A stretch of DNA of 58,299 nucleotides from NCBI GenBank assembly GCA_037134755.1, contig JBAXLO010000001.1, forward strand, positions 1 to 58,299. The letters are read 5' to 3'. This DNA comes from Bacteroidota bacterium. GTDB taxonomy: Bacteria; Bacteroidota; Bacteroidia; Bacteroidales; JACABE01. Each line of letters begins with the position of its first letter. Positions within the stretch are counted from its first letter, which is position 1. A program made the translations under genes and the position numbers. The notes below the pieces were generated by a model. The model had not been told where the DNA came from. It saw only the letters and a list, made by a program, of their open reading frames with translations, and searched no databases. Positions 12,458 to 58,299 of this stretch are shown piece after piece.

Positions 12458-12634
12458 TTTTTTATTAATTTCTATACAAAAGTACTATTCTTTAGTTATA
12501 AAAGGGTTCTTTTTGTAATATAATATTAAAAAAAATAAAATTAGTCATTAGTTTTAGATAAAAATCCAGACATATTAAGTTAAAGCATATATTATCAATA
12601 ATAAAGTACTTTAAGTAAGGCTGAAAACCTTGTA

Positions 12635-37897: not shown

Positions 37898-39703
37898 TCA
37901 TTCCTTTACAAACTTCCTTACCACTGTTTCCTTATCTGTATACAACTTTAAGATATAAACCCCTTTCGCGAAAGCGGAAGTATTAATTACCACTTTCTTA
38001 TTAATAATAGTTGTATATATAGTTTGCCCGATAAGGTTTATTATCTCTATTCTTTGTTCTTTATTTGTGTTTGTTTCTATTATAAGATTATTTGTTGTAG
38101 GATTAGGGTATATAGATATAGATTCATTAAGAGTATTACTAATTATCCCTTGTGTTGATGTGAAATTAGCAAACAAATACCTATCGGCAGTAACATTAAA
38201 AGTATAACTTGTATCAATACAAATTATATTCCCATTCTCTGTCCAATATGTAAAAGCATAATCTGCATTAGGTATTGCTAATAAAGAACATGATTGATTA
38301 AATATATATGTACCACCACCAATAATAGATCCACCTGTAGTTGGAATTGCATAAGTAGTAATTGTATATTGAGGTAAAGTTTGTGTGAAGTTTGCAATCA
38401 GATTCCTATTCCCTGTAACTGTAAATGTATAATTTGTATCAGTACTTACAATATTCCCGTTCTCAGTCCAGTCTATAAAAGCATTACCATTAAAAGGTAT
38501 TGCATTTACACTACATATTTGACCTGAAACATATAACCCACCACCATAAGATGTTCCTTCAATAGCAGGGTTTGTAGTAGTTGTTATTGTATATAATTGT
38601 AGAAAATTAGCAACCAGATTTCTGCTTGCAGTAATAGTAAAAGTAAAAATGCTGTCAGTACTAACAATATTTCCATTCTCTGTCCAATTTACAAAACCAT
38701 ATCCTATATTAGATAGTGCTTTTACTGTACATGTTTGAGTAAAAGTAAATATACCATTTCCTAAAGCTGAACCACCGATATTTGGACTTGAAGTTGTTGT
38801 TATTGTGTCTTGTTCTAATAATGAACGTTTCCATATACCATCAAAAACACCACCACTTATTACCCAAGTTCCTGCAAGAAGAGTGTTTCCACATATAGCG
38901 ATACTATTAACTGAAAAACCAGCTAAACCTATAAAATTCCAACTGTTACCATTATCTGTTGATAAATAGACACCATTTTCTGTTGCTGCAAAAATAGTAT
39001 CACCTTTAATGGCTAATGAAAAGACATTAGTATCTGTTAAACCGTTATTCACTGGTGTCCAATATGCACCATTGTTTGTAGATAAAAATACACCATTATC
39101 TGTACCTACAAAAATATTATTACCATTTATGGCTAAAGAATTGACTTCAAAATTTAATGATAATGACCAATTATTTCCATTAATTGTTGATATATATAAA
39201 CCATTACCATAAGTACCTGCAAAAATAGTATCACCTTTAATAGCTAATGACATAATTTCATTAGATATTAAGCTTGTATTTACCGCTGTCCAACTGCTTC
39301 CATAATTAGTTGATAAAAACACACCTCCTCCAAATGTAGCAGCAAAGATATTATTTCCGCTTATGGCTAATTGACTAACATTAAGATTAGATAAACCTGT
39401 ATTAACAGCATTCCATGTATTCCCATTATCTGTTGATAAAAACACACCATCACCCCAGGACCCATAAAAAATATTGCTATCTTTTATCACTATTGCATCT
39501 ATACTATTAGCTATTGAATCTTTTGTAATCCAACTGTATCCATTATCTGTTGATGTCATCATAACACCCTCAACAGTACCCGCATAAATAGTATTCCCAA
39601 TTGTTGCAAAACAATCTCCAGAGTTACCAGATACTTTTTGCCACTGTGCATTTGCAAAGCTTATTGTAAAGATTGCTGCTAATAAAAGAATGTATTTTTT
39701 CAT
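37898..39703 (-). CDS. T9SS-secreted BNR-like beta-propeller protein with three InlB-B-repeat-like domains
   Basis: 601 aa. Signal MKKYILLLAAIFTISFANAQW. STDNGNSW-type repeats. Three modules of the form GYGFVNWTENGNIVSTDSIFTFTITASRNLVANF. CTD is IYPNPTTNNLIIE...KETVVRKFVKE. Confidence 0.8.
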   Translation of the reverse strand: MKKYILLLAAIFTISFANAQWQKVSGNSGDCFATIGNTIYAGTVEGVMMTSTDNGYSWITKDSIANSIDAIVIKDSNIFYGSWGDGVFLSTDNGNTWNAVNTGLSNLNVSQLAISGNNIFAATFGGGVFLSTNYGSSWTAVNTSLISNEIMSLAIKGDTIFAGTYGNGLYISTINGNNWSLSLNFEVNSLAINGNNIFVGTDNGVFLSTNNGAYWTPVNNGLTDTNVFSLAIKGDTIFAATENGVYLSTDNGNSWNFIGLAGFSVNSIAICGNTLLAGTWVISGGVFDGIWKRSLLEQDTITTTSSPNIGGSALGNGIFTFTQTCTVKALSNIGYGFVNWTENGNIVSTDSIFTFTITASRNLVANFLQLYTITTTTNPAIEGTSYGGGLYVSGQICSVNAIPFNGNAFIDWTENGNIVSTDTNYTFTVTGNRNLIANFTQTLPQYTITTYAIPTTGGSIIGGGTYIFNQSCSLLAIPNADYAFTYWTENGNIICIDTSYTFNVTADRYLFANFTSTQGIISNTLNESISIYPNPTTNNLIIETNTNKEQRIEIINLIGQTIYTTIINKKVVINTSAFAKGVYILKLYTDKETVVRKFVKE

Positions 39704-39769
39704 AGTATAAATGTTTAGGTATATAATAATTTGTAAAATTAAACTTTTATTTAATACGAGTTGTAAATT

Positions 39770-40396
39770 TTATATAATTGTTTTTATTTTCTTTGATTTT
39801 GTAGCATATTTATACGTGAAATTGATTTTTTTGTTTGTTAAATCCCAAGTTGATAATTCTTCTTCAATAAGCAATGAATGTTTTTTAGAAATATCTCTTA
39901 ACGAATTACCAACTGATTTCCTTAAATACTCACTCTCGTTTGCTTTATGCTGACTTATTAATTGAATTGTTATCTTCGGATTAGTTTTAAAGTAAGGGCG
40001 ACCTGTCCAAATTCTTAATCCTTCGGTAACTGCTCTACATACATTTGGATTTTCATCACTTAACCAATCCTTAATAATAGGTAAAGATTTTTCATAACCT
40101 GTATCCTTGCAGTATTGATCAAATGCTTTTGCAAGTATCTCTTGAACCTGCCAGCTTTTATCATAACTTACTTTAGTTCTTAAAATATGTAATGCAGCTA
40201 TATCTTTTGACGAAATAAAACCTAAGATAAATACTGCCAGACATCTCACCTGATACACATCACTTTTTAATAAATCACAAGCAATATTCATGGAATCTAA
40301 AATAGTTTTTGAACTAAATATATTTTGGGCTTCAAATTCTATCGGTTTAAACCCATTGTCAATCTTTGATATTTTATTAATAATTTCCTCAATCAT
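39770..40396 (-). CDS. DNA alkylation repair protein (AlkD-like HEAT-repeat family)
   Basis: 208 aa with HEAT-like repeats. YQVRCLAVFILG, SWQVQEILAKAFDQYC and WLSDENPNVCRAVTEGLRIWTGRPYFK are typical of the DNA_alkylation family. Confidence 0.7.
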   Translation of the reverse strand: MIEEIINKISKIDNGFKPIEFEAQNIFSSKTILDSMNIACDLLKSDVYQVRCLAVFILGFISSKDIAALHILRTKVSYDKSWQVQEILAKAFDQYCKDTGYEKSLPIIKDWLSDENPNVCRAVTEGLRIWTGRPYFKTNPKITIQLISQHKANESEYLRKSVGNSLRDISKKHSLLIEEELSTWDLTNKKINFTYKYATKSKKIKTII

Positions 40397-40420
40397 ATAA
40401 TTATTATATTTATAAAATAT

Positions 40421-41998
40421 CTATTCCTTTACAAACTTCCTTACCACTGTTTCCTTATCTGATAATAGTTTTAAGATATAAACCCCATTTGCGAAAGCGG
40501 AAGTATTAACTATAGCTTTCTTATTAATAATAGTAGTAAATGTGGTTTGCCCGATAAGGTTTACGATCTCTAGTCTTTGGTTTGTATTAGAGTTTGTTTC
40601 TATTGTAAGATTGTCTCTGGTGGGGTTGGGGTAGATTGATATGTTTGTTTCTGATTTATTAATAATACCAACAGTTGATGTTGTATCAATATATTTTCCT
40701 AATTGATATTTATTGGATACGCTGAGATATTTAAAATAAAGAGCATTATTAAAAACAATTAAATTGCCTAAAACTCCCATGTCTGATGATGAAGAATTTT
40801 GGATTTTGACAAAAGGAGTACCATCATATTTAGTAAGGACATACTTACTGTTCATATCTGAATAACAATAATACAATTTATTATTATAAACTATTGGGCT
40901 ATCAAAAAAACCTGAACCTGTAGAATCAGGTCTCTGTAAACAATATACAGAAATATTGTCATATTTGGAAATACAATTAGCATTATTAATTGTATTATTT
41001 ATAAAATACATATAATCATTATATATTATACTGCATCCTTGATAACCAAAATCATCATAAGGATTAATATCATATGTTCCTTCTAACCAAGCTCCATTAT
41101 TATTACTATCCCATTTTGATAATGCGGAGGTTGTCCAATGTGTTCCCATTAAAACGCCTTCATATTTATCGCCTATAAGTAAATAATTGTTATATAGTAT
41201 AGGTGAAAAATAACCATAATCACTAATTCCGATTAAATTAATTGAATCTCCATTAAATTTAGCTAATGCTTCATAACCATTATAGGGATAATCATTTGGA
41301 GTAGAAATATGATAATTAAAATATAATGCTTGATTATATACAATAAGACTATTTTGAAAACCCCATTTGCCTGTATCAGGGTTTGCAATGATTTGCAAAT
41401 TCACACCATCATAGCTAGCTAAATAACTTAAACTTGTATCCTGATACCCGAAAAATAATTTGTTATTATAAATTATCGGACTCCATACAGCACAGCCAAG
41501 ATCTGAAGTATTAAGATTATTTATTAGTGAAATGTCATTACCATTAAGAAAAGCTAATTGATATTTGCTTGAAGCATTTTTATATGGTAAATACAGATTA
41601 TTATTAAATACAAATGGAATTCCCGAAATACCATAATCGGCAGTATTAATATTAGATATCAATGATAATGTTGTATCATTATATTTTGCCAAAAAATTAA
41701 CACTATTTGAATCTTTATATGAAAAATATAAATTATTATTATATAAAACAGCTTGACCGGTCATACCCAAATCAGAAGAAGAAGGATTTGGAATTAATGT
41801 AACTGTAATGCCATCATATTTTGCTAATTGGAACTTCTTAGTAGAATTGCAGTATTGAAAATAAAGATTATTATTGAAAATAATAGGATAAGCCATAAAC
41901 CCTGAATCTAATGGTGAAGGGTTTGATATTAATGTTAACTGTGCATTAGCAACATTCATCACAAAGATTGCAATTAAGAGAAGAAATACTTTTTTCAT
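40421..41998 (-). CDS. T9SS-secreted repeat protein (LAKYDG...YNNxLYF repeats, ELWxxDGT-repeat-like)
   Basis: About nine repeats of the form LAKYDGxxxxLIxNPxxxDxGxxxxxxxYNNNLYFxY. CTD is IYPNPTRDNLTIE...KETVVRKFVKE. The start at 41998 (MKKVFLLLIAIFVMNVANAQ) is preferred over the upstream ATG at 42010. Confidence 0.75.
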   Translation of the reverse strand: MKKVFLLLIAIFVMNVANAQLTLISNPSPLDSGFMAYPIIFNNNLYFQYCNSTKKFQLAKYDGITVTLIPNPSSSDLGMTGQAVLYNNNLYFSYKDSNSVNFLAKYNDTTLSLISNINTADYGISGIPFVFNNNLYLPYKNASSKYQLAFLNGNDISLINNLNTSDLGCAVWSPIIYNNKLFFGYQDTSLSYLASYDGVNLQIIANPDTGKWGFQNSLIVYNQALYFNYHISTPNDYPYNGYEALAKFNGDSINLIGISDYGYFSPILYNNYLLIGDKYEGVLMGTHWTTSALSKWDSNNNGAWLEGTYDINPYDDFGYQGCSIIYNDYMYFINNTINNANCISKYDNISVYCLQRPDSTGSGFFDSPIVYNNKLYYCYSDMNSKYVLTKYDGTPFVKIQNSSSSDMGVLGNLIVFNNALYFKYLSVSNKYQLGKYIDTTSTVGIINKSETNISIYPNPTRDNLTIETNSNTNQRLEIVNLIGQTTFTTIINKKAIVNTSAFANGVYILKLLSDKETVVRKFVKE

Positions 41999-42190
41999 AA
42001 TAAGATTCATTTTAAATAAGACAACAAAGATACTACTTATTTCTTAATTCAATACATTATTTTAATATTAATCACTTTCATGAAAAAGATAAGAGGCTAA
42101 GCAGTAGCACTAGTTAAAGAGATGTTGAAAATAAATGCTAACAAAGTGAAAATAAATGAAAATAAAAGAACTTAGGTCTTAAAAAATGCT

Positions 42191-42900
42191 TATATTTGCA
42201 ATCAAATTATGGTATAACAATTTTCAAACGTTTTATGGGCTTTATCTAATATAAAAATAATGACAACTTCAGCTACTTATGTAAGAAATATTCTTAAAAG
42301 TTGCATAGAATTAAAACTCCGTGGTGTCATTACTAAGCCAATATCCAAAACAAATTTCGTTAAGAATACTAAAAAACTCCGTTTAGAAGGTCTAATCATA
42401 CCAAATGGCAGTTTAGAGCTAGACTATGACTTCATAGAGTTCGACCGTGACTTCATAGACCTAGACAATGATTGTCTAGACCTAAACCGTGACTGCCTAG
42501 ACCTAGACAATGGCTTCATAGACCTAGACAATGACTTTATAGGTCTAGACAATGACTTTATAAGTCTAGACAATGACTTCATAGATCTAGACAATGACTT
42601 TATAAGCCTAGACAATGATTTCATAGAGCTAGACAATGGCAGTCTAGGCTTAAACCGCTTTTTGGCATTCCTAAGATCTATCATTTTGGTAACGTTCTGT
42701 TATTTGCTTAAATACAAACAAAATAAAATTAAACCATTTTTTAAAATTAAGTACTCGATTTATAATGTTACAGGATTTCATTTTAATTTAGACTTTATTA
42801 ATTTTCATATATTAAGGCAACTTTTTATCATATTTAAGTTGTTGTTTAATCAAAAGCATCAATATTGGTACGAATCGAATTATTTTTCATAGTGTAGATA
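42191..42900 (+). other. conserved-flank tandem-repeat element A (promoter-like box, 5' box, 21-bp array, 3' box); nature unresolved (long leader, ncRNA, small repeat protein or DNA-level element)
   Basis: TATATTTG at 42191-42198. The 5' box at 42303-42345 and the 3' box at 42746-42808 are both shared with element B at 52.5 kb. The track ORF 42260..42892 runs through the whole element. Confidence 0.6.
42398..42649. repeat. tandem array, about 12 x 21 bp (CTAGACAATGACTTCATAGAC)
   Basis: Units start at 42419, 42440, 42461 and so on to 42629, with exact 21-bp spacing. A degenerate unit lies at each end. Confidence 0.95.
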
Positions 42901-42962
42901 TTTAAACTGATAAAATATATACCCTTTAAAAATCATATTTATAATTATTTATATAATACACA

Positions 42963-43571
42963 ATGAAAAATTCGAAAATTAGATTAGATTTTGCTCAATT
43001 ATGTTGGCAATTTCTTATTCCCTTTGCAATGAGTGTGTCGGGATTATTTTATTTACTAACATTTGTATTGGTTCCACCATGCACTAAAATTGAATTAGAT
43101 GCAGCAATTCATGATTTACTTACAAAAGGCGTAGCTTCATTGACTCCCGGTTTAGGAAAAGTTAACTTAAGAGAGGATGCTTATAAAATTGTTGTAAATT
43201 ATCTACGTCAATTGGCCCATTTTGCAGAAATGGAATATGAAGGTGATGGAAAAAAATTACTTTTAACAGGTTTTAATATTTATTCACCTGAATCCGGCTC
43301 AGTCCCTATAATATTTAATGTTATACAGGGAACATTTTCAGGACAGGTTATTGCTAACTGGCCTTTCGACCAAAATAATCATGGCTACGTACTTAGATAT
43401 TCTATTAATGAAGTTGGCTTGAGAGATGTTTACACTGAAGTAAATGCAGGTACAACAGGTTGGACTCTAGAAGGTTTGACACCTTTAAAAGAATATATGT
43501 TCTCTTATTGTGTGGTTTATTCAACTTACAAAGGTACTTTTTGTGATCCTGTTTTCTTAACAGTTATCTAA
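42963..43571 (+). CDS. hypothetical protein: short helical N-part + fibronectin-III-like C-terminal domain (possible truncated member of the orphan family)
   Basis: 202-aa ORF. The C-terminus FSGQVIANWPFDQNNHGYVLRYS......GWTLEGLTPLKEYMFSYCVVYS is FN3-like. It is followed by two hairpins, including the shared terminator. Confidence 0.6.
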   Translation: MKNSKIRLDFAQLCWQFLIPFAMSVSGLFYLLTFVLVPPCTKIELDAAIHDLLTKGVASLTPGLGKVNLREDAYKIVVNYLRQLAHFAEMEYEGDGKKLLLTGFNIYSPESGSVPIIFNVIQGTFSGQVIANWPFDQNNHGYVLRYSINEVGLRDVYTEVNAGTTGWTLEGLTPLKEYMFSYCVVYSTYKGTFCDPVFLTVI

Positions 43572-43872: not shown

Positions 43873-46800
43873 ATGAGAAAGATATATCTTTTTATTTTAC
43901 TAAATCTACTTTTTGTTATTACAACAAAAGCACAAGTAGTAATCAATGAAGTTCAATCAGCAAATGCAAATACCATTGCTGATGAAAGTGGATCCTATTC
44001 TGATTGGATCGAATTGTATAATACCAGTACCACAACCTCTGTAAACCTTTTAGGTTATGGTTTAACTGATGGTAGTAACCTCTTTAAGTGGGTATTCCCA
44101 AGTATTGATCTGCCTCACGAACAACATTTAGTAGTATTTGCTTCAGGAACTCCTAACTATACTTATATGACCCATTGGGAAACTGCCGTAAACGCTAATG
44201 ATTCCTGGTTGTTTAAAGTTGCAAATGCCAGCATTCCTTCCACATGGAGTACTTCATCTTATTTACCGGATACTTCATGGAAACAAAAAAAAGGACCCTT
44301 TGGTATTGGGTATTCAGCTGATTCAACAACTGTGCCTCAATGTAAAACTTTTTATATTAGAAGAACTTTCAATGTTTCAGCAACTGCTTATGCTGATATT
44401 TTAAAAGTTGCTCTTTCTATTGATTGGAATGATGGTTTTGTAGCGTACTTAAATGGAAACGAAATTGCAAGAGCTAATGTTCTGGGAAATCCACCAAGTT
44501 ACGATACTTCAGCTACTACTAGTAACACTCCTGCATATCTTACCGGAGATCCTCCAACAAATTATATATTTGATATTGCATCAAGCTTCTTGGTATCCGG
44601 GGATAATATTTTAGCAATTGAAGTTCATAATATAAGTGCAACTAATCCTTCATTGTTTGTAATGCCTTACTTGTCAGTTGGTATTCATGATTTTCAATCT
44701 TTTTATAATCCCACACCAACATCCTTTGGTTTGCAAAATGTTTATCTTCACACTAATTTCAAAATTAATGATAATGAAACGATCTCATTAACCAGCCCAG
44801 GAGCAACACCTACTACAGATTCTCAAAATATTGGCTTTGTTTATGCTGATGCGTCTATTGCGCGTATCCCAGATGGAGGAGATTGGTGTTATACTTCAAC
44901 AGCAACACCTATGTTGCCTAATGTTGGTCCTTGTGGGCAGGGGTTTACTGCACAACCTCAGGCTTCAGTACCTGCCGGCTTCTATACTACTACTCTTCAT
45001 GATTCTCTTAAATGTTCGTCAGCAAATACAGCAATACATTATACTTTAAATGGAAACATACCAAAGATTACTGATAAACTTTATACAGGTCCAATTACTA
45101 TTGATAGTACTGTAGTGTTAAGAGCAAGAGCATTTTCTACAGTTCCAAATGGACTACTCCCTGGGCAACCTTTTACAGCAACCTATTTATTAAATCAACC
45201 TGCAACTACTTGTCCAATTGTTTCTTTAAGTTTAGATTCAATGTCGTTATGGGATTGGAATACGGGGATATATGTACTAGGTCCTAATGCAAGCCCTAAC
45301 AGACCTTTCTGGGGTGCTAATTTCTGGCAAAACTGGAATAGACCCGGACATGTTGAATATTTTACTTCTACAGATAGTTTAAAGTTCAGTATGGATGCTT
45401 TTCTTGGTATGAATGGTAATTATTCAAGAGATAAAGATCAAAAAAGCTTTGCGATAACTACAAGATCATCACTTGATACCAACTCTATTAATTATCAAAT
45501 ATTCCCAGATAAAAACATAACTGATTTTAAAAGATTCGTTGTGCGTAATGCAGGTTCTGATAATCTAATATGTCATTTTAGAGATGAATGTCTTCAAACA
45601 ATGTTTAAATCCTCTTATAATGATTGGGAAGCAAACAGACCTTGCGATGTATATTTAAATGGTAAGTATTGGGGTGTTTATCATCTTCACGAAAAGAGTG
45701 ATAAGTATTATCTAGCCGAAAACTATGGTGTAAATCCTGACAGTGTCGATTTAATAAAGAATTTTGCAGCACAGGATGGTAATATGAATGCATTCACAAT
45801 CATGCAAAACTACTTAGGAAACACTAGCTTAGATTTATCAACAACAGCTAATTATACAACAGCTCAAAGTTATTGGGATATGGATAATCTAAAGGATTAT
45901 TATATTGGTGAGATATTTGTTGAAAACCAAGATTGGATAACAAAACAATGGACTGCTATTTCACCTGCACATTTTGAATATTGGGTAAATAATATTAAGT
46001 TATGGAGGCCACAGCAAACTAATGCTAAATGGAGATTTAATTTGCACGATATAGATCAGGGAGGGTTTCCAGCTAATATTTTGGCAATAAATTATAATCA
46101 TACAAACGTAAATTTTCTATCATTGGCAATTAGTCCTGGAAGTGTTATCAACAATAATCTTTATTCAGTAATATTAAGGAATTTCTTAAAGAATGCTGAC
46201 TTTAAAAATAAGTTTATCAACCGATATGCAGATCTTTTAAATACCGTCCTATTAACAAATAGAACTTTAATAGTAGCTGATACATTTGTAAATAGGCTTT
46301 CACCTGAAATACAAAGAGAAATAAATAGGTGGGGACTATCTGATCCAACTTCCAGATGTCATAATATCACTGAATGGAATACAAATATTTCAGACTTTAA
46401 AACATTCCTAACTCAGCGTCCTGATTCAGCTCGAAAGGAAATACTATCATATTTTAATTTATCAGGTAATGTTACAATAACTATAGATGTTGCTAATAAA
46501 TCTCAAGGGAAAGTGCAAATTAGTACATTAACTCCTGATACTGCTACTTTACCATGGCATGGAATATATTTTAATGGGAATAATGTACCTATAACACCAA
46601 TACCAAATCCGGGATATGTATTTGACTATTGGGAAGCAAATCACTCTTTTTCTGTTAATAACTATACAGGATTTCATTTTATGAATTTCACACAAAGTGA
46701 CACCATGAGAGCACATTTTAAAGCAGCACCAACAATTACTATATCCGAAATAAATTATCATTCAGACCCTACTCGTGATACAAAAGACTGGATTGAATTA

Positions 46801-47970
46801 CATAATTATGGAACTACAGCTATGAATGTAACTGGATGGAAAATATTTAAACCCGCAACCGGTGATTCTTATACTTTTCCTAGTAGTACTATTATTTCAG
46901 CGAATGGTTATATGGTCTTTTGTGAAGACACTGATTATTTCGCAACTACTTATTTACCTACCGTCATCACAAATAAAAAAGGTCCTATGAATTTTGGATT
47001 TAATGATAACGGTGAAGAAATACAAATACAAAACTCTCAAGGTGGGATAATTCTAGATTTTACATACAAATCTGATTCTACATGGCCGGGTTGTGCAGCT
47101 GGTTATGGACGTACATTAGAGCTACAAAGTAACACTCTTTTTATAAACGATCCAGCTAATTGGGCTTGTGGTTGTATGTTAGGTTCTCCTGGAGTTGCTC
47201 ATTCTCCATGTACAGAAGCAGTTTTATTTAATGAAATTAATTACAATTCTTCCGCTAACTATCCTATGAATGACTGGGTAGAATTGCATAACAGGAGTAA
47301 TACAGCTATTGATGTATCTAATTGGGTTTTTAAAGATGGTGTTGATACACATTCGTTCATTATCCCAAAAAGAATTGCTAATGGAAGTACTATTCCTCCT
47401 TATGGTTATCTAGTTTTGGTTAAAGATACAGTAAGTTTTAATACTGTATGGCCTGGTATTACTAATAGATTTGGTGATTTAGGTTTTGGTTTATCATCAA
47501 GTGGAGATGTTCTCAGACTTTATAATTCAACAGGTAAGATTTATCAGTCTTTATTATATAGTCCTGAATGGGGTGCAAATGGAGATGGAACAACTTTAGA
47601 GTTTAATAACAGTCTTACAGATGCAAATCCTAATATGAGTATTGGTTGGTTTCCAGGTTGTATAAAAGGCTCACCGGGATATCCTTTTGCACCCAATTGT
47701 GATGCTGGAATAAAAGAATATACTAGTGAAACTTATAAGGTTTATCCTAATCCTGCTACAAATGATGTGAATATTGAATTGAATACTGTACATAATGATG
47801 ATATTTATTTTCAATTATACGATTTAGAAGGTCGTATGTTAAATGAAGTATCGATGAAAGGTAAAACAAAGATTACTGTAAGTAGAAATGGTTTACAAAG
47901 TGGTATTTATATATACAGAATAAGTACTAATAATTCAGTTGAGGGTGCGGGTAAGCTGATTTTTGAATAA
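43873..47970 (+). CDS. T9SS-secreted lamin-tail-domain (x3) / CotH kinase-family protein, copy 1
   Basis: 1365 aa. LTD signature VINEVQSAN...SDWIELYNTS..VNLLGYGLTD. CHB_HEX_C-like HYTLNGNIPKITDKLYTGPITIDSTVVLRARAF. CotH core FVVRNAGSDN..CHFRDE...YLNGKYWGVYHLHEKSDKYYLAENYG. Two further LTDs. CTD is VYPNPATNDVNIEL...GIYIYRI. Confidence 0.85.
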   Translation: MRKIYLFILLNLLFVITTKAQVVINEVQSANANTIADESGSYSDWIELYNTSTTTSVNLLGYGLTDGSNLFKWVFPSIDLPHEQHLVVFASGTPNYTYMTHWETAVNANDSWLFKVANASIPSTWSTSSYLPDTSWKQKKGPFGIGYSADSTTVPQCKTFYIRRTFNVSATAYADILKVALSIDWNDGFVAYLNGNEIARANVLGNPPSYDTSATTSNTPAYLTGDPPTNYIFDIASSFLVSGDNILAIEVHNISATNPSLFVMPYLSVGIHDFQSFYNPTPTSFGLQNVYLHTNFKINDNETISLTSPGATPTTDSQNIGFVYADASIARIPDGGDWCYTSTATPMLPNVGPCGQGFTAQPQASVPAGFYTTTLHDSLKCSSANTAIHYTLNGNIPKITDKLYTGPITIDSTVVLRARAFSTVPNGLLPGQPFTATYLLNQPATTCPIVSLSLDSMSLWDWNTGIYVLGPNASPNRPFWGANFWQNWNRPGHVEYFTSTDSLKFSMDAFLGMNGNYSRDKDQKSFAITTRSSLDTNSINYQIFPDKNITDFKRFVVRNAGSDNLICHFRDECLQTMFKSSYNDWEANRPCDVYLNGKYWGVYHLHEKSDKYYLAENYGVNPDSVDLIKNFAAQDGNMNAFTIMQNYLGNTSLDLSTTANYTTAQSYWDMDNLKDYYIGEIFVENQDWITKQWTAISPAHFEYWVNNIKLWRPQQTNAKWRFNLHDIDQGGFPANILAINYNHTNVNFLSLAISPGSVINNNLYSVILRNFLKNADFKNKFINRYADLLNTVLLTNRTLIVADTFVNRLSPEIQREINRWGLSDPTSRCHNITEWNTNISDFKTFLTQRPDSARKEILSYFNLSGNVTITIDVANKSQGKVQISTLTPDTATLPWHGIYFNGNNVPITPIPNPGYVFDYWEANHSFSVNNYTGFHFMNFTQSDTMRAHFKAAPTITISEINYHSDPTRDTKDWIELHNYGTTAMNVTGWKIFKPATGDSYTFPSSTIISANGYMVFCEDTDYFATTYLPTVITNKKGPMNFGFNDNGEEIQIQNSQGGIILDFTYKSDSTWPGCAAGYGRTLELQSNTLFINDPANWACGCMLGSPGVAHSPCTEAVLFNEINYNSSANYPMNDWVELHNRSNTAIDVSNWVFKDGVDTHSFIIPKRIANGSTIPPYGYLVLVKDTVSFNTVWPGITNRFGDLGFGLSSSGDVLRLYNSTGKIYQSLLYSPEWGANGDGTTLEFNNSLTDANPNMSIGWFPGCIKGSPGYPFAPNCDAGIKEYTSETYKVYPNPATNDVNIELNTVHNDDIYFQLYDLEGRMLNEVSMKGKTKITVSRNGLQSGIYIYRISTNNSVEGAGKLIFE

Positions 47971-48209
47971 TTAGATATAGTTTATCTTATTTTATTCTCG
48001 TTTGTTATTATTCAAGAATTAAATAAGTATCTAAATTAATAATTAAGAGCAGTTATTAAGCAAGACTGAAAAATTTATAACATAATAAGCTTTTTAATGT
48101 TATAATAGTATAAATAAAAAGCATACAAGGTCAATAGCTAAATACTGAACTTATTATTACTTATAATTTAAGACTTAATTAATTTACAATTTTAACAATA
48201 CAACATATT

Positions 48210-51200
48210 ATGAGAAAGATTTTTCTTTTTATTCTTATTAATCTTCTTTTAGGTTTAACAACGAAAGCACAGGTTGTTTTAAATGAGATTCAGGCAGAAA
48301 ACGCCACTACTATTTATAATGACGTAGATAGTTCGAATTCTGATTGGATTGAACTATATAACAAAGGAACAGCCTCTGTCAATTTATTAGGTTATGGTTT
48401 GTCGGATAATACTACACTTTATAAATGGGTGTTTCCAAGTATTGACCTACCATCACATAAACACCTATTAGTATTTGCTTCAGGTGATAATATTACTACT
48501 TATATGAATCATTGGGAAATAGGTGTTAGTGCTAATGATACTTGGACTTATAAAGTGGCAACTTCCAGCACACCTACAACCTGGAATACTTCCTCTTATT
48601 TACCCGATACTTCGTGGAAACAGAAGATTGGTCCTATTGGTCATGGATATTCAGCTGATTCAACCACAATTCCTCAATGTAATACTTTATATATGAGGAG
48701 GACTTTTAATGTAACAGCTTCTTCAATCGCTGATATGATGAAAGCTGCACTAGTTATTGATTATGATGATGGTTTTGTTGCTTATTTAAATGGCTACGAA
48801 ATCGCAAGAGCTAACATTACAGGAACTCCTACTTACAATTTAGCTGCTGATGGTACCCATGTGCCTGCATATATGACGGGAGACCTCACTCCAAATTTTA
48901 TGTTAGATAGTGCTACTTTCTTTAGTCATTTGTTACCGGGAGATAATATTTTGGCAATTGAAGTCCACAATGTAAGTACTACAGATCCTACATTGTTTGC
49001 AATGCCATATCTAGCATTTGGCATCCATGATTTTCAAACGTTCTTTAGTCCTGTTCCATCTTGGTTTTATCTTCAAAATAAGTATCTTCATACAAATTTT
49101 AAAATTAACGATAACGAAACAATTTCTTTAACTCCTCCAGGTACTTCTGCTGCCTCTGATTTTATTAATATTGGGTATCTTTATACTGATGCTTCCATTG
49201 CACGTATTCCTGATGGAAATAATATTGGCGGTGTTTATCAAGGCTGGTGTTATACTGAAAGTCCTTCTCCAAATTTACCAAATCCTATGGCTGGTTGTGG
49301 CATGGGGTTTACTGCTAAGCCTCAATCTTCAGTGCCTGCCGGATTTTATACCACTGCAATACATGATAGTCTTAAATGCTCATCACCTAATACTGTAATA
49401 TATTACACATTGAACGGGAATATGCCTAAGGCAACTGATAAATTATATACTGGACCTATTACTATTGATAGTACAACAGTTTTAAGAGCACGTGCTTTTT
49501 CAACAGGAATTGGGACACTACTTCCCGGACAAACGTTTACAGCTACTTATTTTATTAATGAACCTTCAACAATTCCAATAGTTTCTTTAAGTACTGATTC
49601 GATGTCATTATGGGATTGGAATACCGGTATATATGTAATGGGACCTCATGCTGACAGTATAAATCCTCCAAACTATGGAGCTAACTTCTGGCAAAACTGG
49701 AATAAAGAAGCACATGCAGAGTATTTTTTAAGACCTTCAGATAATAATATATTTAGTTTGGATGCATTTATTTCAATCAACGGAAACTGGTCCAGAGCTT
49801 ATGATCAAAAGAGTTTTGGTGTTGAAACTAAATCTTCATTAGATACTAATACTATTAATTATCAACTCTTCCCTAATAAAAACATTACTAATTTTCAAAG
49901 GTTTGTTGTTCGTGATGCAGGTACTGATAATCTTTTCTGTCATTTCAGAGATGAACTGCTTCAAAAGATGTTTTCGAATACTAATGTTGGATGGGAAGCT
50001 TCTCGCCCATGCAATTTGTTTTTAAATGGTAAGTATTGGGGTTTATATCATCTACTCGAAAAGAGTGATAAATATTATCTTGCAGAAAATTATGGTGTAA
50101 ATCCAGATAGTGTCGATTTAATAAAGATTTTTGCTGTTCAGGATGGTAATAATAATGCCTATAATAGTTTAGTATCTACTTTTACTAACATAAGTGACTT
50201 TTCAACAAGTGCTAATTATGCCATTTTTAAAAGCCTTTGGAATATGGATAATTTTATGGATTATTATATTGATGAGATTTGTATTGAGAATATGGACTGG
50301 ATTTCTAAAAGATATTATAGTAATATTCCAGGGTATTTATATTGGGTAACAAATGTGAAACTTTGGAGAGAACAGAAACCAAACGCTATATGGAGATATG
50401 AAATGCATGATGTAGATCAGGGAGCTAAACCTTTTAGTATGATAAATGGAGGTGGTCCCGATCATATTAATTTCCTATCTCAAGCAATTAGTCCAGGGGG
50501 GAACATTAACAATAATATATATTCAGTTATGTTAAGGAAGTTAATGCAGAATTCTGATTTTAAAAACAAGTTTATAAACCGTTATGCAGATATATTAAAT
50601 ACTACCTTTTTACCAAGTCGTACTTTGCCAATTGCAGACTCTTTAAAAAATATAATGGAACCTGAAATGCAAAGAGAAATAACAAGATGGGCAACATCTT
50701 CTTCCTTATCAAGAAATATGACTGAATGGCACAGTAATGTTACTAACTTTAGAACATTCTTATCTCAACGTCCCGATTCTGCAAGAGTTGAAATTCTTTC
50801 TTATTTTAACTTATTGGGAAATGTTAATATCACTGTTGATGTTGCTAATAAAGCTCAAGGAAAAGTTCAGATAAGTACTCTAACTCCAGATACTGCTATC
50901 TTACCTTGGCACGGTATTTATTTTAATGGTAATAATGTGCCTATAACACCTGTACCAAATCCAGGATATGTATTTGATTATTGGGAGGCAAATCATTCTT
51001 TTTCATCAAATAATTATACCGGTTATCATTTTATGAATTTTACTCAAAGTGATACTATGAGAGCTCATTTTAAAGTAGCACCATCAATAACTATTTCTGA
51101 ATTGAATTATCATTCAGATCCTACTCGCGACACTAAGGATTGGATCGAATTACATAACTATGGTACAACAGCAATGAACATCACCGGTTGGGAAATATAT

Positions 51201-52343
51201 AAACCTGCTACGGGTGATACTTATACTATCCCAAGTGGAACAGTTATTACAGCAAACGGTTACATGGTCTTTTGTGAAGATACTGATTATTTTGCAACAT
51301 CTTATCCTAACACAATCACCAATAAAAGAGGGCCGATGAACTTTGGTTTTAATGATTACGGAGAAGAAATTCAAATACAAAATGCTCAGGGCGGTATTAT
51401 TTTAGATCTTACCTATAGTTCTGATTCTACTATTTGGCCAGGTTGTGCAGCAGGGTATGGTCGTACTTTGGAATTGCAAAGCAATACTCTTTTTATAAAT
51501 GATCCTTCTAATTGGGCATGTGGTTGTATGTTAGGTTCACCCGGAGCTGCTCATTCACCTTGTACAGAAACTGTTTTATTTAATGAAATTAATTATAATT
51601 CTTCAACTACTTATCCTATGAATGATTGGGTAGAATTACATAATAAAAGTAATACTGCTATAGATGTGTCAAATTGGGTACTTAAAGATGGTGTAGATAC
51701 CCATTCATTTGTAATCCCTAAAAGAATTGCAAATGGAAGTACTATTCCTCCAAATGGTTATTTAGTTATTGTACGAGATACAACTAGTTTTAATGCAGTA
51801 TGGTCTGGGATTACTAATAGATTGGGCAATTTAAGTTTTGGCTATTCTTCAAGTGGAGATGCTATCAGACTATATAATTCAACAGGTAAAATATATCAAT
51901 CAATGGTATATAAGTCCGAATGGGGAGCTAATGGAAATGGTGCAACATTAGAGTACAATCATAGTATTTCGGATGCAAATCCAAATTTAAGTACTGGATG
52001 GTTTGAAGGATGTTTAGGAGGTTCTCCGGGATATGCACATATCGTACCTTGTCCCACAGTAGGCTCAATGACAACAGGTATAAAAGAATTTTCAAACAAC
52101 GAAAACTATAGGGTTTATCCTAATCCTGCAACAAATGATGTGAATATTGAATTGAATACTGTACATAATGATGATATTTATTTTCAATTATACGATTTAG
52201 AAGGTCGTATATTAAATGAAGTATCGATGAAAGGTAAAACAAGGATCACAATAAGTAGAAATGGTATACAAAGTGGTATCTATATATTTAGGATAATAAC
52301 AAATCAATCAGTAACCGGTGCCGGTAAATTGATATTTGAATAG
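48210..52343 (+). CDS. T9SS-secreted lamin-tail-domain / CotH kinase-family protein, copy 2 (tandem paralogue)
   Basis: 1377 aa, collinear with copy 1 over its full length, with the same domain order. Confidence 0.85.
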   Translation: MRKIFLFILINLLLGLTTKAQVVLNEIQAENATTIYNDVDSSNSDWIELYNKGTASVNLLGYGLSDNTTLYKWVFPSIDLPSHKHLLVFASGDNITTYMNHWEIGVSANDTWTYKVATSSTPTTWNTSSYLPDTSWKQKIGPIGHGYSADSTTIPQCNTLYMRRTFNVTASSIADMMKAALVIDYDDGFVAYLNGYEIARANITGTPTYNLAADGTHVPAYMTGDLTPNFMLDSATFFSHLLPGDNILAIEVHNVSTTDPTLFAMPYLAFGIHDFQTFFSPVPSWFYLQNKYLHTNFKINDNETISLTPPGTSAASDFINIGYLYTDASIARIPDGNNIGGVYQGWCYTESPSPNLPNPMAGCGMGFTAKPQSSVPAGFYTTAIHDSLKCSSPNTVIYYTLNGNMPKATDKLYTGPITIDSTTVLRARAFSTGIGTLLPGQTFTATYFINEPSTIPIVSLSTDSMSLWDWNTGIYVMGPHADSINPPNYGANFWQNWNKEAHAEYFLRPSDNNIFSLDAFISINGNWSRAYDQKSFGVETKSSLDTNTINYQLFPNKNITNFQRFVVRDAGTDNLFCHFRDELLQKMFSNTNVGWEASRPCNLFLNGKYWGLYHLLEKSDKYYLAENYGVNPDSVDLIKIFAVQDGNNNAYNSLVSTFTNISDFSTSANYAIFKSLWNMDNFMDYYIDEICIENMDWISKRYYSNIPGYLYWVTNVKLWREQKPNAIWRYEMHDVDQGAKPFSMINGGGPDHINFLSQAISPGGNINNNIYSVMLRKLMQNSDFKNKFINRYADILNTTFLPSRTLPIADSLKNIMEPEMQREITRWATSSSLSRNMTEWHSNVTNFRTFLSQRPDSARVEILSYFNLLGNVNITVDVANKAQGKVQISTLTPDTAILPWHGIYFNGNNVPITPVPNPGYVFDYWEANHSFSSNNYTGYHFMNFTQSDTMRAHFKVAPSITISELNYHSDPTRDTKDWIELHNYGTTAMNITGWEIYKPATGDTYTIPSGTVITANGYMVFCEDTDYFATSYPNTITNKRGPMNFGFNDYGEEIQIQNAQGGIILDLTYSSDSTIWPGCAAGYGRTLELQSNTLFINDPSNWACGCMLGSPGAAHSPCTETVLFNEINYNSSTTYPMNDWVELHNKSNTAIDVSNWVLKDGVDTHSFVIPKRIANGSTIPPNGYLVIVRDTTSFNAVWSGITNRLGNLSFGYSSSGDAIRLYNSTGKIYQSMVYKSEWGANGNGATLEYNHSISDANPNLSTGWFEGCLGGSPGYAHIVPCPTVGSMTTGIKEFSNNENYRVYPNPATNDVNIELNTVHNDDIYFQLYDLEGRILNEVSMKGKTRITISRNGIQSGIYIFRIITNQSVTGAGKLIFE

Positions 52344-52387
52344 ATAAGCATTTAAAGATATTTCATTCTTTCTTGAAGTATATTATA

Positions 52388-52419
52388 ATAGCCTTCACCA
52401 TTAATTTGGTGAAGGCTAT
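52388..52419 (+). terminator. rho-independent terminator after CotH copy 2
   Basis: ATAGCCTTCACC-ATTAATTT-GGTGAAGGCTAT is a 12-bp perfect stem followed by a T-rich tract. Confidence 0.7.
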
Positions 52420-52590
52420 TTATATTTAAGTCCACAAATAGTTGAATTATCATAGAAAATAAATTCCATTTATCTATTGACTTTCTTTCAATATAATTTA
52501 AAAATACGCATAGAAATAAAACTCCAAGGTGTCATCAATAAGCAAATATCTCATTCAAAACCATTCAAAATCCTTAAAAAGCTGCTTGAG

Positions 52591-52653
52591 GCAGGTGCAA
52601 CGCTGCATTCGGTAAATGCAACGCTGCACTTGTCGAATACAAGGCTGCATTCG
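52591..52653. repeat. tandem array, 3 x 21 bp (GCAGGTGCAACGCTGCATTCG)
   Basis: Units at 52591, 52612 and 52633, with degenerate flanking units. Confidence 0.85.
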
Positions 52654-52824
52654 TTCCTTGTGGGTTTGTTCTTGATTTTATCAAAAATTAGACTTATAAA
52701 TACACATCAAGTCATTAATATTAAATACTTTATTTGTAATGTCAAAGGATTGCATTTTAATTTAGCCTTTATCAATTACCATAAACTCATGGTTTAAATG
52801 AATACTAGAATCGTTGTTATAAAT

Positions 52825-52860
52825 AAAAGAGGCTGTCTCAGATTTGAGACAGCCTCTTTT
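52825..52860. terminator. bidirectional terminator hairpin
   Basis: AAAAGAGGCTGTCTC-AGATTT-GAGACAGCCTCTTTT lies downstream of both element B (+) and 52887..53681 (-). Confidence 0.8.
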
Positions 52861-52886
52861 ATTTATAAGAGAAAATAATTTAAATA

Positions 52887-53681
52887 TTATTTCTTAAAGC
52901 AATTTACATATTTGTATTGAGGAACAGCTGAAGTAGCATCATATTTCCATAATACTGCAATTACATTTAATGTCTTTGTCCAAGTAGGATCAATAGTAAG
53001 AGAATAACTCTTATTAATAGTTTTTCCAGCTGTAACTGCTCCACTATAAATAGATTCTCCATAAGCATTGCTAGGAACTGAAGTAGTTCTTAAAACTTGC
53101 ATGTGTTTGTAAGTTGCAGGATTTGGTGGGTTGTTTTGTACATAAGCAGTTGGTGCTGTAGTACTACCATCAATTCCACTTTCAATTAAATAAACAGAAA
53201 GATAATAATTTCCTGTTCCAGCTGCAAAGAATTTAGTTTGTGTATTAACTGTCATCTTGGTTCCTGATTTAGTATAATTTAAATCAATAGCAGCAGTAGC
53301 TGTTTGAGCTAACAAACTAGTTAATGTTCCAGTTTGATAATTTGATGCATCACCAATCCAGAAAGAAGGAATACCACCTCCATCTGTACGGTCGTTGTAA
53401 AATGATGTATATAATGTTGCATTATACATCGGATCATTGCTGGAATGACATGATACGCCTGCAGTGTAAGGTGTAGCACACAAAGCATCCATAGTTGAAG
53501 CTCCCCAAGCACCACAATAATAGCACCATGTAGCAGTGTATTCAATCACAAAACCCCATTGCTTTTGAACAGGATTTAATGTTGTTGTTGTTCCTCCTGG
53601 AGGTGTTGTTGTAGTATTGTCTTTTTTACAAGATGCAACCACTACTAATACAATTACGAATAGATAAATTAATTTTTTCAT
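52887..53681 (-). CDS. lipoprotein with thioredoxin-like WCxxC motif (Omp28-related-like)
   Basis: Lipobox VVASC, a Thr/Pro-rich linker, then EYTATWCYYCGAWG. Confidence 0.6.
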   Translation of the reverse strand: MKKLIYLFVIVLVVVASCKKDNTTTTPPGGTTTTLNPVQKQWGFVIEYTATWCYYCGAWGASTMDALCATPYTAGVSCHSSNDPMYNATLYTSFYNDRTDGGGIPSFWIGDASNYQTGTLTSLLAQTATAAIDLNYTKSGTKMTVNTQTKFFAAGTGNYYLSVYLIESGIDGSTTAPTAYVQNNPPNPATYKHMQVLRTTSVPSNAYGESIYSGAVTAGKTINKSYSLTIDPTWTKTLNVIAVLWKYDATSAVPQYKYVNCFKK

Positions 53682-53883
53682 TGCTTTTTTATTTGTTTAA
53701 AAATTTCCTCAAAAATACTATAAATTTCAATCACTTTTACATTTTAATTAAAATTTAACAAAATAAATTTAGTTATTCATTATTTGATTAGCTTTATTAT
53801 ATTGAAATCAAAATTGATTAATTCTCTTATTAATTTATAAAATGTTTATTTACAAATGTATTATAGTTTATTTTCTGCTAACA

Positions 53884-53967
53884 TAACGAAGTGTTCAACC
53901 GATAGTACAGAGTTGTTAACATGTTGTACGAAGTTGTCAACATGTTGTACAGAGTTGTCAGGAAGCA
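53884..53967. repeat. tandem array, 4 x 21 bp (GTACAGAGTTGTCAACATGTT), bracketed by a 9-bp inverted repeat
   Basis: Units at 53884 (degenerate), 53905, 53926 and 53947. TTTTCTGCT (53871-53879) and AGCAGAAAA (53964-53972) bracket the array. Confidence 0.85.
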
Positions 53968-54143: not shown

Positions 54144-54854
54144 ATGAAAAACTCAATCAAGCTAATAACTTTAATGTTATCAATCTTTTTAGCATTTACA
54201 TCAAATAATAATTATGCTCAAAAGTCAAAGTTCAAAGGAATCGTTACCTATGATATAAAATATACAGGTAAAGATATTACACCTGCTCAAGAAGCACAAT
54301 TGCCAAAAGAACAGGTTATAAAGATATATGAAAACAAAACCATGCAGGAAACTAAATATGGTCCTGTTACAATTACTGAAGTAACTAATGGTGATGAAGG
54401 TTCAAAGACATCTATGTTTGACCTAATGGCTGTTATGCAGAAGAAAGTATATGTAAAAACAACAAAAAAAGAAATTGAACAGAAAATAGCTGAATCAAAA
54501 TCAAAGCCTGTAATTAAATATATTGAAGAAACTAAAGAAGTGGCAGGTTACAAAGCTAAAAAAGCAATCTTTTCTTTTAAAGAAGAAGATGCTGAAGATT
54601 CAACTCATGTAACAATATGGTATAGCGAAGAATTAGGTGGAGAAGATTTAAATTATGGTGGTGAATTTTCAGGATTAAAAGGTTTCCCTTTAGAATATGA
54701 AATGCCAACATCTAAAATTACTATTAAAGCTTCTGCTAAAACTATTGTTAAAGGCAAAGTAAAAGAGACAGAGTTTTTAATTCCAACTGATTATAATCAA
54801 ATTACCCAGGAAGAATTACAAGGTATGATGGGTGGCGGTGGTGGTGATGAATAA
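54144..54854 (+). CDS. hypothetical secreted protein
   Basis: 236 aa with signal peptide MKNSIKLITLMLSIFLAFTSNNNYAQ and a Gly-rich acidic tail. No recognisable motif. Confidence 0.6.
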   Translation: MKNSIKLITLMLSIFLAFTSNNNYAQKSKFKGIVTYDIKYTGKDITPAQEAQLPKEQVIKIYENKTMQETKYGPVTITEVTNGDEGSKTSMFDLMAVMQKKVYVKTTKKEIEQKIAESKSKPVIKYIEETKEVAGYKAKKAIFSFKEEDAEDSTHVTIWYSEELGGEDLNYGGEFSGLKGFPLEYEMPTSKITIKASAKTIVKGKVKETEFLIPTDYNQITQEELQGMMGGGGGDE

Positions 54855-57423: not shown

Positions 57424-58080
57424 ATGAAGAAAATACTTCTTATCCTATTACTAACATTTATAGTATATCCATTTACAAAGTCTTACGCTCAGGTTGTAGA
57501 TAAAAAAGCTATTGCAATAGTTGATCAGCTTGCAGCTAAAATGAAATCGTATCCTACTCTAAAGATTGACTTTACCTATACTTTGGAGAACAAACAGAAG
57601 AAGATTAATCAAAGTAAGAAAGGTACTATTATTATTAAAAGTGATAAATATTCGCTAAATGTAGCAGGACAAAAGATTATATCGGATGGTAAAACTACCT
57701 GGACTTATATTCCTGATGCTAACGAAGTGCAGATTAATTCAGTTAATCCTAATGAAGATGAAGGTATTAATTTAACTAAGCTACTTGCTACCTATAGTAA
57801 GAACTTTCGCCCAAAGCTTATCAAAGAGGAAAGAGTAAGTAATGTAAATACGCAGGTTGTTGATTTAGTTCCTTTAAAAACAAAAGCTTACTATAAGGTA
57901 CGTTTGATTATCGATAAAGATAAAACTCAGATAATAAGTACACAGATATTTAATAAGAATGAAAGTACTTTTAAATATAAAGTAGATAAGTTTCAATCAA
58001 ATCCTAAGGTTGTAGATAGTGATTTTACTTTTAAGAAAACAGATTATCCCGCCAATGTCGAGATTAACGATATGAGGTAA
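57424..58080 (+). CDS. lolA: LolA-like outer-membrane lipoprotein carrier protein
   Basis: 218 aa with a signal peptide. It lies immediately downstream of ftsK, a synteny conserved in Bacteroidota. The LolA-like beta-rich composition supports the call, but sequence recognition is moderate. Confidence 0.65.
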   Translation: MKKILLILLLTFIVYPFTKSYAQVVDKKAIAIVDQLAAKMKSYPTLKIDFTYTLENKQKKINQSKKGTIIIKSDKYSLNVAGQKIISDGKTTWTYIPDANEVQINSVNPNEDEGINLTKLLATYSKNFRPKLIKEERVSNVNTQVVDLVPLKTKAYYKVRLIIDKDKTQIISTQIFNKNESTFKYKVDKFQSNPKVVDSDFTFKKTDYPANVEINDMR

Positions 58081-58177: not shown

Positions 58178-58299
58178 TCGCAGTCACGAAGCAAACTGTC
58201 GCAGTCACGAAGCAAACTGTCGCAGTCACGAAGCAAACTGTCGTAGTCACGAAGCAAACTGTCGCAGTCACGAAGCAAACTGTCGTAGTCACGAAGCAA
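58178..58299. repeat. tandem array, at least 5.8 x 21 bp (TCGCAGTCACGAAGCAAACTG), running off the window end
   Basis: Units at 58178, 58199, 58220, 58241, 58262 and 58283. The only variation is C/T at one position (TCGCAG vs TCGTAG). Confidence 0.95.

Follow-up and report, generated by a model that had tools for sequence, protein, structure and literature searches.

The locus and its two elements

The window analyzed here is a 58,299-nt stretch of DNA (contig JBAXLO010000001.1, positions 1 to 58,299) from a Bacteroidota bacterium of the Bacteroidales lineage JACABE01 (GenBank assembly GCA_037134755.1). It contains two related elements, A and B, in each of which an array of 21-nt tandem repeats lies between a conserved 5′ box and a conserved 3′ box. 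An earlier note on this DNA had viewed element B as a free-standing unit indicating that the element type can function on its own, as a noncoding RNA (ncRNA) or a small protein. The analysis described below suggests that element B is probably a long-lived, truncated paralogue of a small protein gene, of which element A is a full-length representative.

Element B lies between the second of two CotH genes (48210-52343) and a convergent gene for an Omp28-like lipoprotein (52887-53681, minus strand). The intrinsic terminator of this CotH gene is a plus-strand hairpin at 52387-52420, with 14 pairs and a T-run in the terminator scan (fold −23 kcal/mol, z −7.8), and it shields element B from upstream transcription. 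As the earlier note had observed, the sequence TATATTTA (52421-52428, plus strand) begins directly after this hairpin. The promoter-like box seen there is present, but it is a near-match to the Bacteroidota −7 box TAnnTTTG in which the final G is replaced by A, and the window (31.7% G+C) contains 3.6 matches to TAnnTTTA per kb, so that TATATTTA is little informative. A motif scan did not find TAnnTTTG between 52340 and 52520, which leaves element B without a canonical promoter box, and the distant orthologue L018 has TATATTAA at the corresponding position, showing that the box is not conserved.

The open reading frame (ORF) of element B spans 52477-52797 on the plus strand (106 codons, TTG to TAA) and is paralogous to the ORF of element A but truncated. 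It starts with TTG where A has ATG and has four fewer head codons than A, with no in-frame ATG found before codon 104; 16 residues precede the G-V of the 5′ box, which is found at residues 21-22 of full-length members. The 5′ box (52510-52535, plus strand) reads IEIKLQGVI in the ORF frame, and the family motif I-x-x-K-x-x-G-V-[IF]-x-K is matched in the same frame by IEIKLQGVINK (52510-52542); across the family, this box is conserved at the nucleotide level, with no third-position excess. It is followed by the array (52588-52650, plus strand), consisting of three 21-nt units in register, GCAGGTGCAACGCTGCATTCG, GTAAATGCAACGCTGCACTTG, and TCGAATACAAGGCTGCATTCG, which encode the heptads (A)GATLHS, VNATLHL, and SNTRLHS and form an in-frame variable number tandem repeat (VNTR). 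The tandem repeat finder TRF called 52596-52653, with a period of 21 and 2.8 copies. Downstream of the array are the hydrophobic stretch FLVGLFLIL (52654-52680, plus strand), a counterpart of the hydrophobic and possibly transmembrane segment of the family that is borderline in B (Kyte-Doolittle 1.53 over 19 residues), and the 3′ box, or C-box coding segment, INIKYFICNVKGLHFNLAFINY (52714-52779, plus strand), which retains every family-invariant residue.

The likeness of element B to the full-length elements ends at ~52785, followed by a plus-strand truncation region (52786-52816) that includes the stop codon at 52795-52797. The predicted product ends with ...INYHKLMV*, and the 24-codon tail of the family, the 66-70-nt spacer, and the partner gene that follow in full-length copies are all missing. 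Beyond 52785, the alignment is at the level expected of AT-rich DNA, with no residual tail or partner homology, and a tblastn search with four partner proteins found no partner gene near B, the sole hit in the window being 42963-43568. The observation that no gene follows B on its own strand thus holds, the next gene being the convergent Omp28-like one. The 3′ hairpin is larger than the 13-bp stem at 52825-52860 reported previously: it is a perfect 24-bp stem at 52817-52868, flanked by an A-run and a T-run on opposite sides, and is 94% conserved in the orthologues L018 and L019. The folding energy is about −36 kcal/mol (z about −11) whichever strand is folded. Because the hairpin sits 18 nt past the stop of the Omp28-like gene, it is as much the terminator of that gene as that of B, that is, a bidirectional terminator serving both. 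The Omp28-like gene is the downstream neighbor in every B-locus orthologue that reaches that far (L016, L018, and L019).

The boxes as parts of a protein reading frame

Element A (42260-42892, plus strand) is a full-length family member that starts with ATG and encodes 210 amino acids (aa), comprising a head, 10 to 12 heptads of the LDNDFI type, a hydrophobic helix, the C box, and a tail ending in ...KHQYWYESNYFS*. Its array can be laid out in 12 rows in register, the first and last of which are divergent, and TRF reports 10.8 units; the B array is unrelated to it in sequence, with only ~7 of 21 positions alike between the B units and the A consensus GACTTCATAGACCTAGACAAT in a hand comparison in the ORF register. 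That B carries three units of an unrelated 21-bp sequence had been noted before and is borne out by both the TRF call and the register of the units. A perfect Bacteroidota −7 box, TATATTTG (42191-42198, plus strand), lies 5′ of element A and is retained in the related loci L004, L006, and L013. Just 5′ of this box, at 42126-42170, are 4.4 copies of TGAAAATAAA, a stretch also found in L004.

The two boxes are indeed shared by A and B: the 5′ box pattern ATAGAAnTAAAACTCCnnGGTGTCAT occurs in the window only at 42305-42330 and 52510-52535, and the 3′ box pattern GGATTnCATTTTAATTTAGnCTTTAT only at 42773-42798 and 52747-52772, with 0 occurrences of either expected from shuffles. The ORFs of both elements are in the same frame relative to both boxes, and BLASTP aligns them over the C box (E 2e-7) and the N box (E 2e-5). 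In element B, this frame contains 0 stops vs 8 and 10 in the other two. We collected further copies by a protein search, from one metagenome-assembled genome (MAG; at least one locus, found with back-translated AT-rich patterns), and by scanning metagenomes with a degenerate 3′-box pattern. All 18 box-bearing copies, from the window, the metagenomes, and the MAG, are open in the same frame, and full-length copies have an ATG exactly 20-21 codons before the 5′-box G-V and end with ...KHxYWxExxYF[SN]-stop.

The region from the C box to the stop, corresponding to the last 50 codons, aligns without gaps among six diverged full-length copies, with 18/21/35 variable columns at the three codon positions and dN/dS of 0.12-0.38. 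This third-position excess and the low dN/dS argue for a translated, constrained peptide. The head has a different pattern, with 15/15/15 and 17/16/12 variable columns by codon position and dN/dS of about 0.5-2.9; it must nevertheless be translated, since no start codon further inside the ORF is conserved. The family head, where conserved at all, is conserved in nucleotides rather than in peptide, and the 5′ and 3′ boxes are conserved segments of a protein reading frame. Of the two natures proposed earlier for the element type, the same-frame ORFs and the codon-position pattern of the 3′ box speak for the small protein; the latter pattern, which is that of translated sequence, together with the lack of an Rfam family, speaks against an ncRNA.

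A small family with an in-frame variable array and an FN3 partner

Only 16 of 1.84 billion representative proteins matched a profile built from the C-terminal part. Among these, 11 are full-length proteins with a common architecture, each with its own heptad repeat, and 10 of the 11 have the tail motif; the remaining five (P0016, P0022, P0024, P0028, and P0029) are truncated or degenerate copies or fragments, P0028 and P0029 being degenerate members besides B. The contigs of P0020, P0021, and P0026 are too short for context because assemblies break at the arrays. The full-length protein (150-220 aa) consists of a 21-residue head ending in G-V, a linker, the heptad array, a hydrophobic stretch, and ~50 conserved C-terminal residues. 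The latter include the C box, IKYxIYNVKGxHFNLxFINY (in another form IKYxIxNVKGxHFNLxFINY), and the 24-residue tail ...IFxxLFNxKHxYWxExxYF[SN]-stop, the most conserved part of the family. No family was found for the A ORF, the B ORF, or the partner in Pfam, NCBIfam, PHROGs, or PADLOC; AlphaFold2 with six sequences gave no usable model of the A ORF (pLDDT 39), and a search of the literature on 21-bp or heptad repeats in Bacteroidota returned nothing relevant.

The repeat period is always seven residues, with compositions ranging from acidic to strongly basic, and the heptad differs in nearly every lineage (LDNDFID, ATLQSxN, LVKGTLL, LPKTSLV, KVRVSLP, HETNVVR, SNARKML, RERVFFA, and NTSRLLA). The array is shown to be an in-frame VNTR, the sequence of which drifts freely and the copy number of which differs between strains. 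The 21-nt period never breaks the frame, as exemplified by B loci with 3, 12, and ~17 units, and a unit length that is a multiple of 3 is not that of a frameshift-type phase-variable contingency locus. The changes in the array probably arise by replication slippage or unequal exchange.

In full-length copies, the element is followed by a second gene on the same strand. The partner gene of element A (42963-43571, plus strand) encodes 202 aa, with an N-terminal hydrophobic helix, two further helices, and a C-terminal fibronectin type III (FN3) domain, as modeled by AlphaFold2 (pLDDT 75). A sequence search of the PDB returned weak FN3 hits only, but these were confirmed by Foldseek, the top hits of which are all FN3 domains. 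The partner is predicted to be a single-pass membrane protein with an FN3 domain. Its family is tiny (10 clusters). A partner of ~203 aa is present after all 15 full-length copies with enough flank, along with the tail, and was never found after B-locus copies; element B is therefore the exception and does not demonstrate that the element type works alone, as had been proposed. The spacer between element and partner measures 66-215 nt in seven copies, being 66-70 nt in four of them (element A, L001, L005, and L010) and 191-215 nt in L006, L008, and L009. The 191-215-nt spacers of L004 (~970-1080), L006 (~1850-1960), and L008 contain extra DNA with inverted repeats, ...TCGTCATTGCAAAG....CAATAGCAATGACAG..., resembling a small insertion of a miniature inverted-repeat transposable element or a repetitive extragenic palindromic (REP) sequence.

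The neighborhoods of the module vary. It lies between RecR and FBP aldolase in L001 and L002, beside a LolA-like gene in L005, and between a type IX secretion system (T9SS) cargo gene and CotH in the window. The two CotH genes, which also encode lamin-tail and T9SS-sorting domains (43873-47970 and 48210-52343; 1365 and 1377 aa), are arranged in tandem between A and B and are 73-89% identical in nucleotide sequence in blocks.

The truncated locus in other lineages

The truncated arrangement CotH–B–Omp28 was identified in three other lineages, the arrays of which comprise 12, ~17, and at least 6 units, indicating that the B locus is inherited. In the sister strain represented by L016, the flanks are 98-99.5% identical, the TTG, stop, and hairpin are as in B, and the array has 12 units. 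The two loci differ by a single 189-nt array indel at 52597, accounting for the nine additional units of L016, and by three ORF substitutions, all nonsynonymous, with none from 52574 to 53700. L018 and L019 are more distant, with CotH and Omp28 84.5% and 79% identical, respectively, and they preserve the order CotH–terminator–element–hairpin–Omp28 as well as the same 3′ truncation, with ~17 diverged units. However, an in-frame stop separates the position of the B TTG from the box, a new ATG is found six codons before LLGV, and four family-invariant C-box residues are mutated. In L020, an ISL3-family transposase gene (1125-1970) is inserted in the head, two invariant residues are changed, and there is no start codon. 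For the C part, dN/dS among B-locus copies is 0.40-0.92 vs 0.12-0.25 in most full-length pairs. This relaxed constraint would indicate that the B locus is an old remnant.

Mosaic alleles

The loci L004, L006, L009, and L013 combine the 5′ flank of A (92-95% identity over 41940-42354) and the first 29-32 codons of A with a linker, array, hydrophobic stretch, and C box of the B type (81-83% identical to B) and have a tail after the C box. A-like sequence gives way to B-like sequence at two points ~8 nt apart, just 3′ of the 5′ box, and the existence of two different switch points implies that recombination in or near these conserved parts took place more than once. The earlier description of the array as a variable part between constant handles fits these alleles well, with B-type arrays present at locus A.

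By visual comparison, the array units of the L016 B locus and the L006 A locus are much alike, with several rare variants common to both. Moreover, the 783-nt contig L017 joins a B-locus 5′ side, 99.7% identical to L016 and exact to nt 463, to a 3′ side of the A-locus type with a tail, 100% identical to L006 and exact from nt 465; the junction, inside the array, is a single novel base at nt 464. L017 may be either a real recombinant or a chimera of short-read assembly. Within this genome, identical runs shared by A and B are at most ~13 nt long, as read off the pairwise alignment.

In the vicinity of element A, the sister contig L015 (2426-3854) is 98-99.7% identical to the window on both sides, but where the window has 3.8 kb of T9SS-cargo paralogues (38123-41938), it carries 1.4 kb of other sequence. 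The 5′-flank homology shared with L004, L006, and L013 starts at 41940 and thus coincides with the breakpoint (41938).

RNA-level and targeting analyses

Rfam produced no match in the whole window at the gathering threshold, and an E-value scan of 52300-52950 gave sub-threshold hits on the two terminator hairpins only (52387-52420 and 52817-52868). The proposal that the 21-mers serve as a specificity part did not hold up: no further copies were found in the window, and no complementary targets beyond chance were found in the window, phage records, or viral contigs. The sole 18-mer match, to viral coding sequence rich in G+C, is compatible with chance. No phage record matched, and spacer-like targeting was rejected accordingly. 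Unlike a CRISPR array, the B units are arranged head-to-tail with no spacers, and no Pfam match to Cas families was obtained in the nine ORFs scanned (in 42260-43571, 43873-52343, 52477-53681, 54144-54854, 27158-28090, and 40421-42010).

A 6-4-6 palindrome with compensatory changes, noticed by eye in three array types, was rejected as a defining feature of the unit. In a systematic test, the palindrome was strong only in the L001/L014 type, exemplified by the L014 unit hairpin AAAAGGA-ACTC-TCCTTTT (shuffle p about 0.006), of intermediate strength in the B type, and no better than chance in A and L005. Where present, it may merely favor slippage.

Origin and fate of element B

We consider it somewhat better than an even chance, at roughly 55%, that element B is a long-lived truncated paralogue of a small protein gene, namely, a nonfunctional remnant with a slippage-prone in-frame VNTR. 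Such a copy, having kept the head box, array, hydrophobic stretch, and C box and lacking the ATG, −7 box, tail, and partner, would no longer make the functional product of the family and would survive as a relic that recombination with full-length copies may occasionally have refreshed. A decayed remnant of a duplicated locus was the scenario that the earlier note had named as fatal to its own proposal, and essentially such a remnant was found, except that there are no partner traces in 52783-52886, where the copy just ends. Several observations weigh against the remnant interpretation. The B-locus frame is open in four lineages, with 0 stops vs 6-16 in the other two frames; in a crude neutral, substitution-only simulation, the probability of no stop was ~0.09 at d = 0.1 per lineage, and the open frame hints that it has been selected for or that gene conversion has repaired it repeatedly. 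The window copy, which is identical to L016 from 52574 onward, retains all invariant C-box residues, and the element has escaped deletion despite ~15-20% flank divergence. TTG is usable as a start codon, and the dN/dS figures rest on 40-50 codons.

The same observations could be accommodated if B were a functional short paralogue, expressed from TTG (ATG in L018) as a tail-less protein of 106-171 aa with no FN3 partner, for example, a competitor or modulator of the full-length protein. The frame open in four lineages, with the other frames full of stops, the synteny kept across ~15-20% divergence, the complete set of invariant C-box residues in the window, the position of B between its own flanking terminators, and the dN/dS of 0.40 between the window B and L018 in the C part are all compatible with this explanation. 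We nevertheless regard it as unlikely, given that the start is not conserved (TTG here, a stop and another ATG in L018, and no start in L020), L020 tolerates an ISL3 insertion, L018 and L020 have lost invariant residues, all three ORF substitutions between the window and L016 are nonsynonymous, the tail, which is the most conserved part of the family, is missing, and there is no canonical promoter box.

The mosaic alleles raise another scenario, in which B is a silent donor cassette similar to pilS/pilE, with the array and linker copied into the expressed locus A via recombination in the boxes or arrays. B is truncated at both ends and yet open-framed, relatives with the A 5′ flank carry the B-type linker, array, and C box with two A-to-B junctions, the L016 B and L006 A-allele units look alike and have rare variants in common while the unique parts are 81-83% identical, and L017 links the 5′ side of the B locus to the tail-bearing 3′ side of the A locus. 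However, the window has one such copy, whereas cassette systems usually have several donor copies; the A/B identical runs of at most ~13 nt are too short for efficient homologous exchange; the tail cannot come from B; L017, a 783-nt short-read contig with a 1-nt novelty at its junction, may be a chimera; and the mosaics could just as well stem from full-length alleles of different strains recombining with one another. A donor role for B thus seems decidedly improbable. The weakest reading, to which we assign very little credence, is that of a free-standing ~400-nt ncRNA with the boxes as structural handles and the array as a variable targeting part. The terminators on both sides of B, the conservation of the head and 5′ box with no coding-type pattern (15/15/15 and 17/16/12; dN/dS about 1), and the hairpin-capable units of some array types (the L014 type) would suit such an RNA. 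In contrast, codon periodicity is clear and dN/dS low in the 3′ box, every copy has one open frame, no Rfam match or canonical promoter box is present, the A, L005, and most B-type units give no hairpin signal, so that it does not define the element, and the 21-mers have no complementary targets beyond chance in the sequences searched.

Other repeats and elements in the window

Several further arrays were noted in the window. At 26671-26941, ~13 units of an AT-rich 21-nt repeat, TTATnnnnnTnnTTTGTTTyGT, unrelated in sequence to A and B, occupy part of the 850-nt gap between divergent genes (25395-26309, minus strand, and 27158-28090, plus strand); the T-tracts, phased at two helical turns, suggest a possible curved-DNA or protein-binding array. 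An intergenic 42-nt repeat with a TAATGCAAATGTAAA core is found at 12624-12819, and 2.7 intergenic copies of GTACAGAGTTGTCAACATGTT lie at 53905-53960, 185 nt 5′ of a GLPGLI-family gene (54144-54854). At 58178-58299, at least 5.8 near-perfect (97%) copies of the 21-nt unit TCGCAGTCACGAAGCAAACTG run off the end of the window; this array, which has neither a 5′ nor a 3′ box, is preceded, at a distance of 100 nt, by a LolA-like gene (57424-58080) with its terminator. At the position corresponding to the TCGCAGTCACGAAGCAAACTG array, L005 has a full element-plus-partner module, convergent to the LolA-like gene. The genome thus seems generally rich in 21-nt-period intergenic repeats. In addition, a 197-aa ORF at 28282-28875 matches the NCBIfam model of the REP-associated tyrosine transposase (RAYT) with an E value of 2.9e-12, below the curated cut-off.

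Relation to known systems and implications

The full-length module fits two readings. It might encode a small, mostly basic membrane-associated protein, the C-terminus of which contacts the FN3 partner, with the heptads as a variable spacer or exposed segment. Alternatively, by analogy, the element might be a long leader ORF of the SecM/MifM/VemP/TnaC kind. Under either reading, B is devoid of essential parts.

The family is new and unannotated and yet of a known general kind. Mycoplasma Vlp/Vsa lipoproteins are size-variable surface proteins with in-frame VNTRs and resemble the family in having a head-to-tail coding repeat with a period that is a multiple of three, a copy number that varies between close strains with no frameshift, and a fast-evolving repeat. 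Unlike these lipoproteins, the family has no lipoprotein signal peptide, its repeat is replaced wholesale (acidic, polar, and basic heptads), the FN3 partner is obligatory, and the host is a freshwater bacterium of the Bacteroidota. SecM, MifM, VemP, and TnaC are monitoring-substrate or arrest-peptide leader ORFs, and their likeness is to full-length members only: an ORF of 150-220 codons in which the N-terminal two-thirds may vary in length and sequence and would need only to stay in frame, a hydrophobic segment is placed ~55-75 residues ahead of the stop, and only the last ~50 residues, with an invariant Trp, are under purifying selection, the ORF ending a short and often fixed distance (66-70 nt) before a co-directional membrane-protein gene. 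By contrast with these leaders, some spacers are 191-215 nt long (L006, L008, and L009), which argues against a simple hairpin-coupling version of the leader idea, and the downstream gene is no known biogenesis factor. B differs further in having neither the tail nor the downstream gene, the parts such a mechanism needs.

For B itself, two other comparisons are pertinent. Neisseria pilS/pilE loci comprise the silent truncated cassettes of antigenic variation; B is likewise a promoter-poor, start-less, 3′-truncated, open-framed copy, and the conserved blocks around its variable segment are shared with a full-length locus 10 kb away, at which mosaic alleles occur. B differs in being a single copy with identity runs too short for exchange with the resident locus. 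Like bacterial pseudogenes, B has lost its start, 3′ end, and operon partner and exhibits relaxed dN/dS, with an insertion sequence in the locus of one lineage and mutated invariant residues in others; unlike them, it is unusually long-lived, remaining stop-free in four lineages.

As a truncated gene copy, B provides no evidence for the element type as an autonomous RNA or protein unit. It led, however, to a very small, unannotated two-gene module, represented by only 16 and 10 protein clusters in billions of sequences. The first gene combines three unusual traits, namely, a repeat period that is kept while the sequence is replaced, a head conserved in nucleotides but not in peptide, and a strongly constrained C-terminus of ~50 residues encoded just 5′ of the FN3 gene. 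The module is a candidate for either a pair of envelope proteins variable in size and sequence or a long leader ORF with a regulatory role, of the SecM/MifM type, in Bacteroidota, a group in which, to our knowledge, such regulation has been little explored. The mosaic alleles, along with the open-framed remnant, offer a small natural setting in which to study how VNTRs turn over and how sequences recombine within the genomes of uncultured lake bacteria. If B did prove to be a donor cassette, this would amount to pilS/pilE-like variation in a free-living, nonpathogenic bacterium, presumably driven by pressure from phages or grazers.

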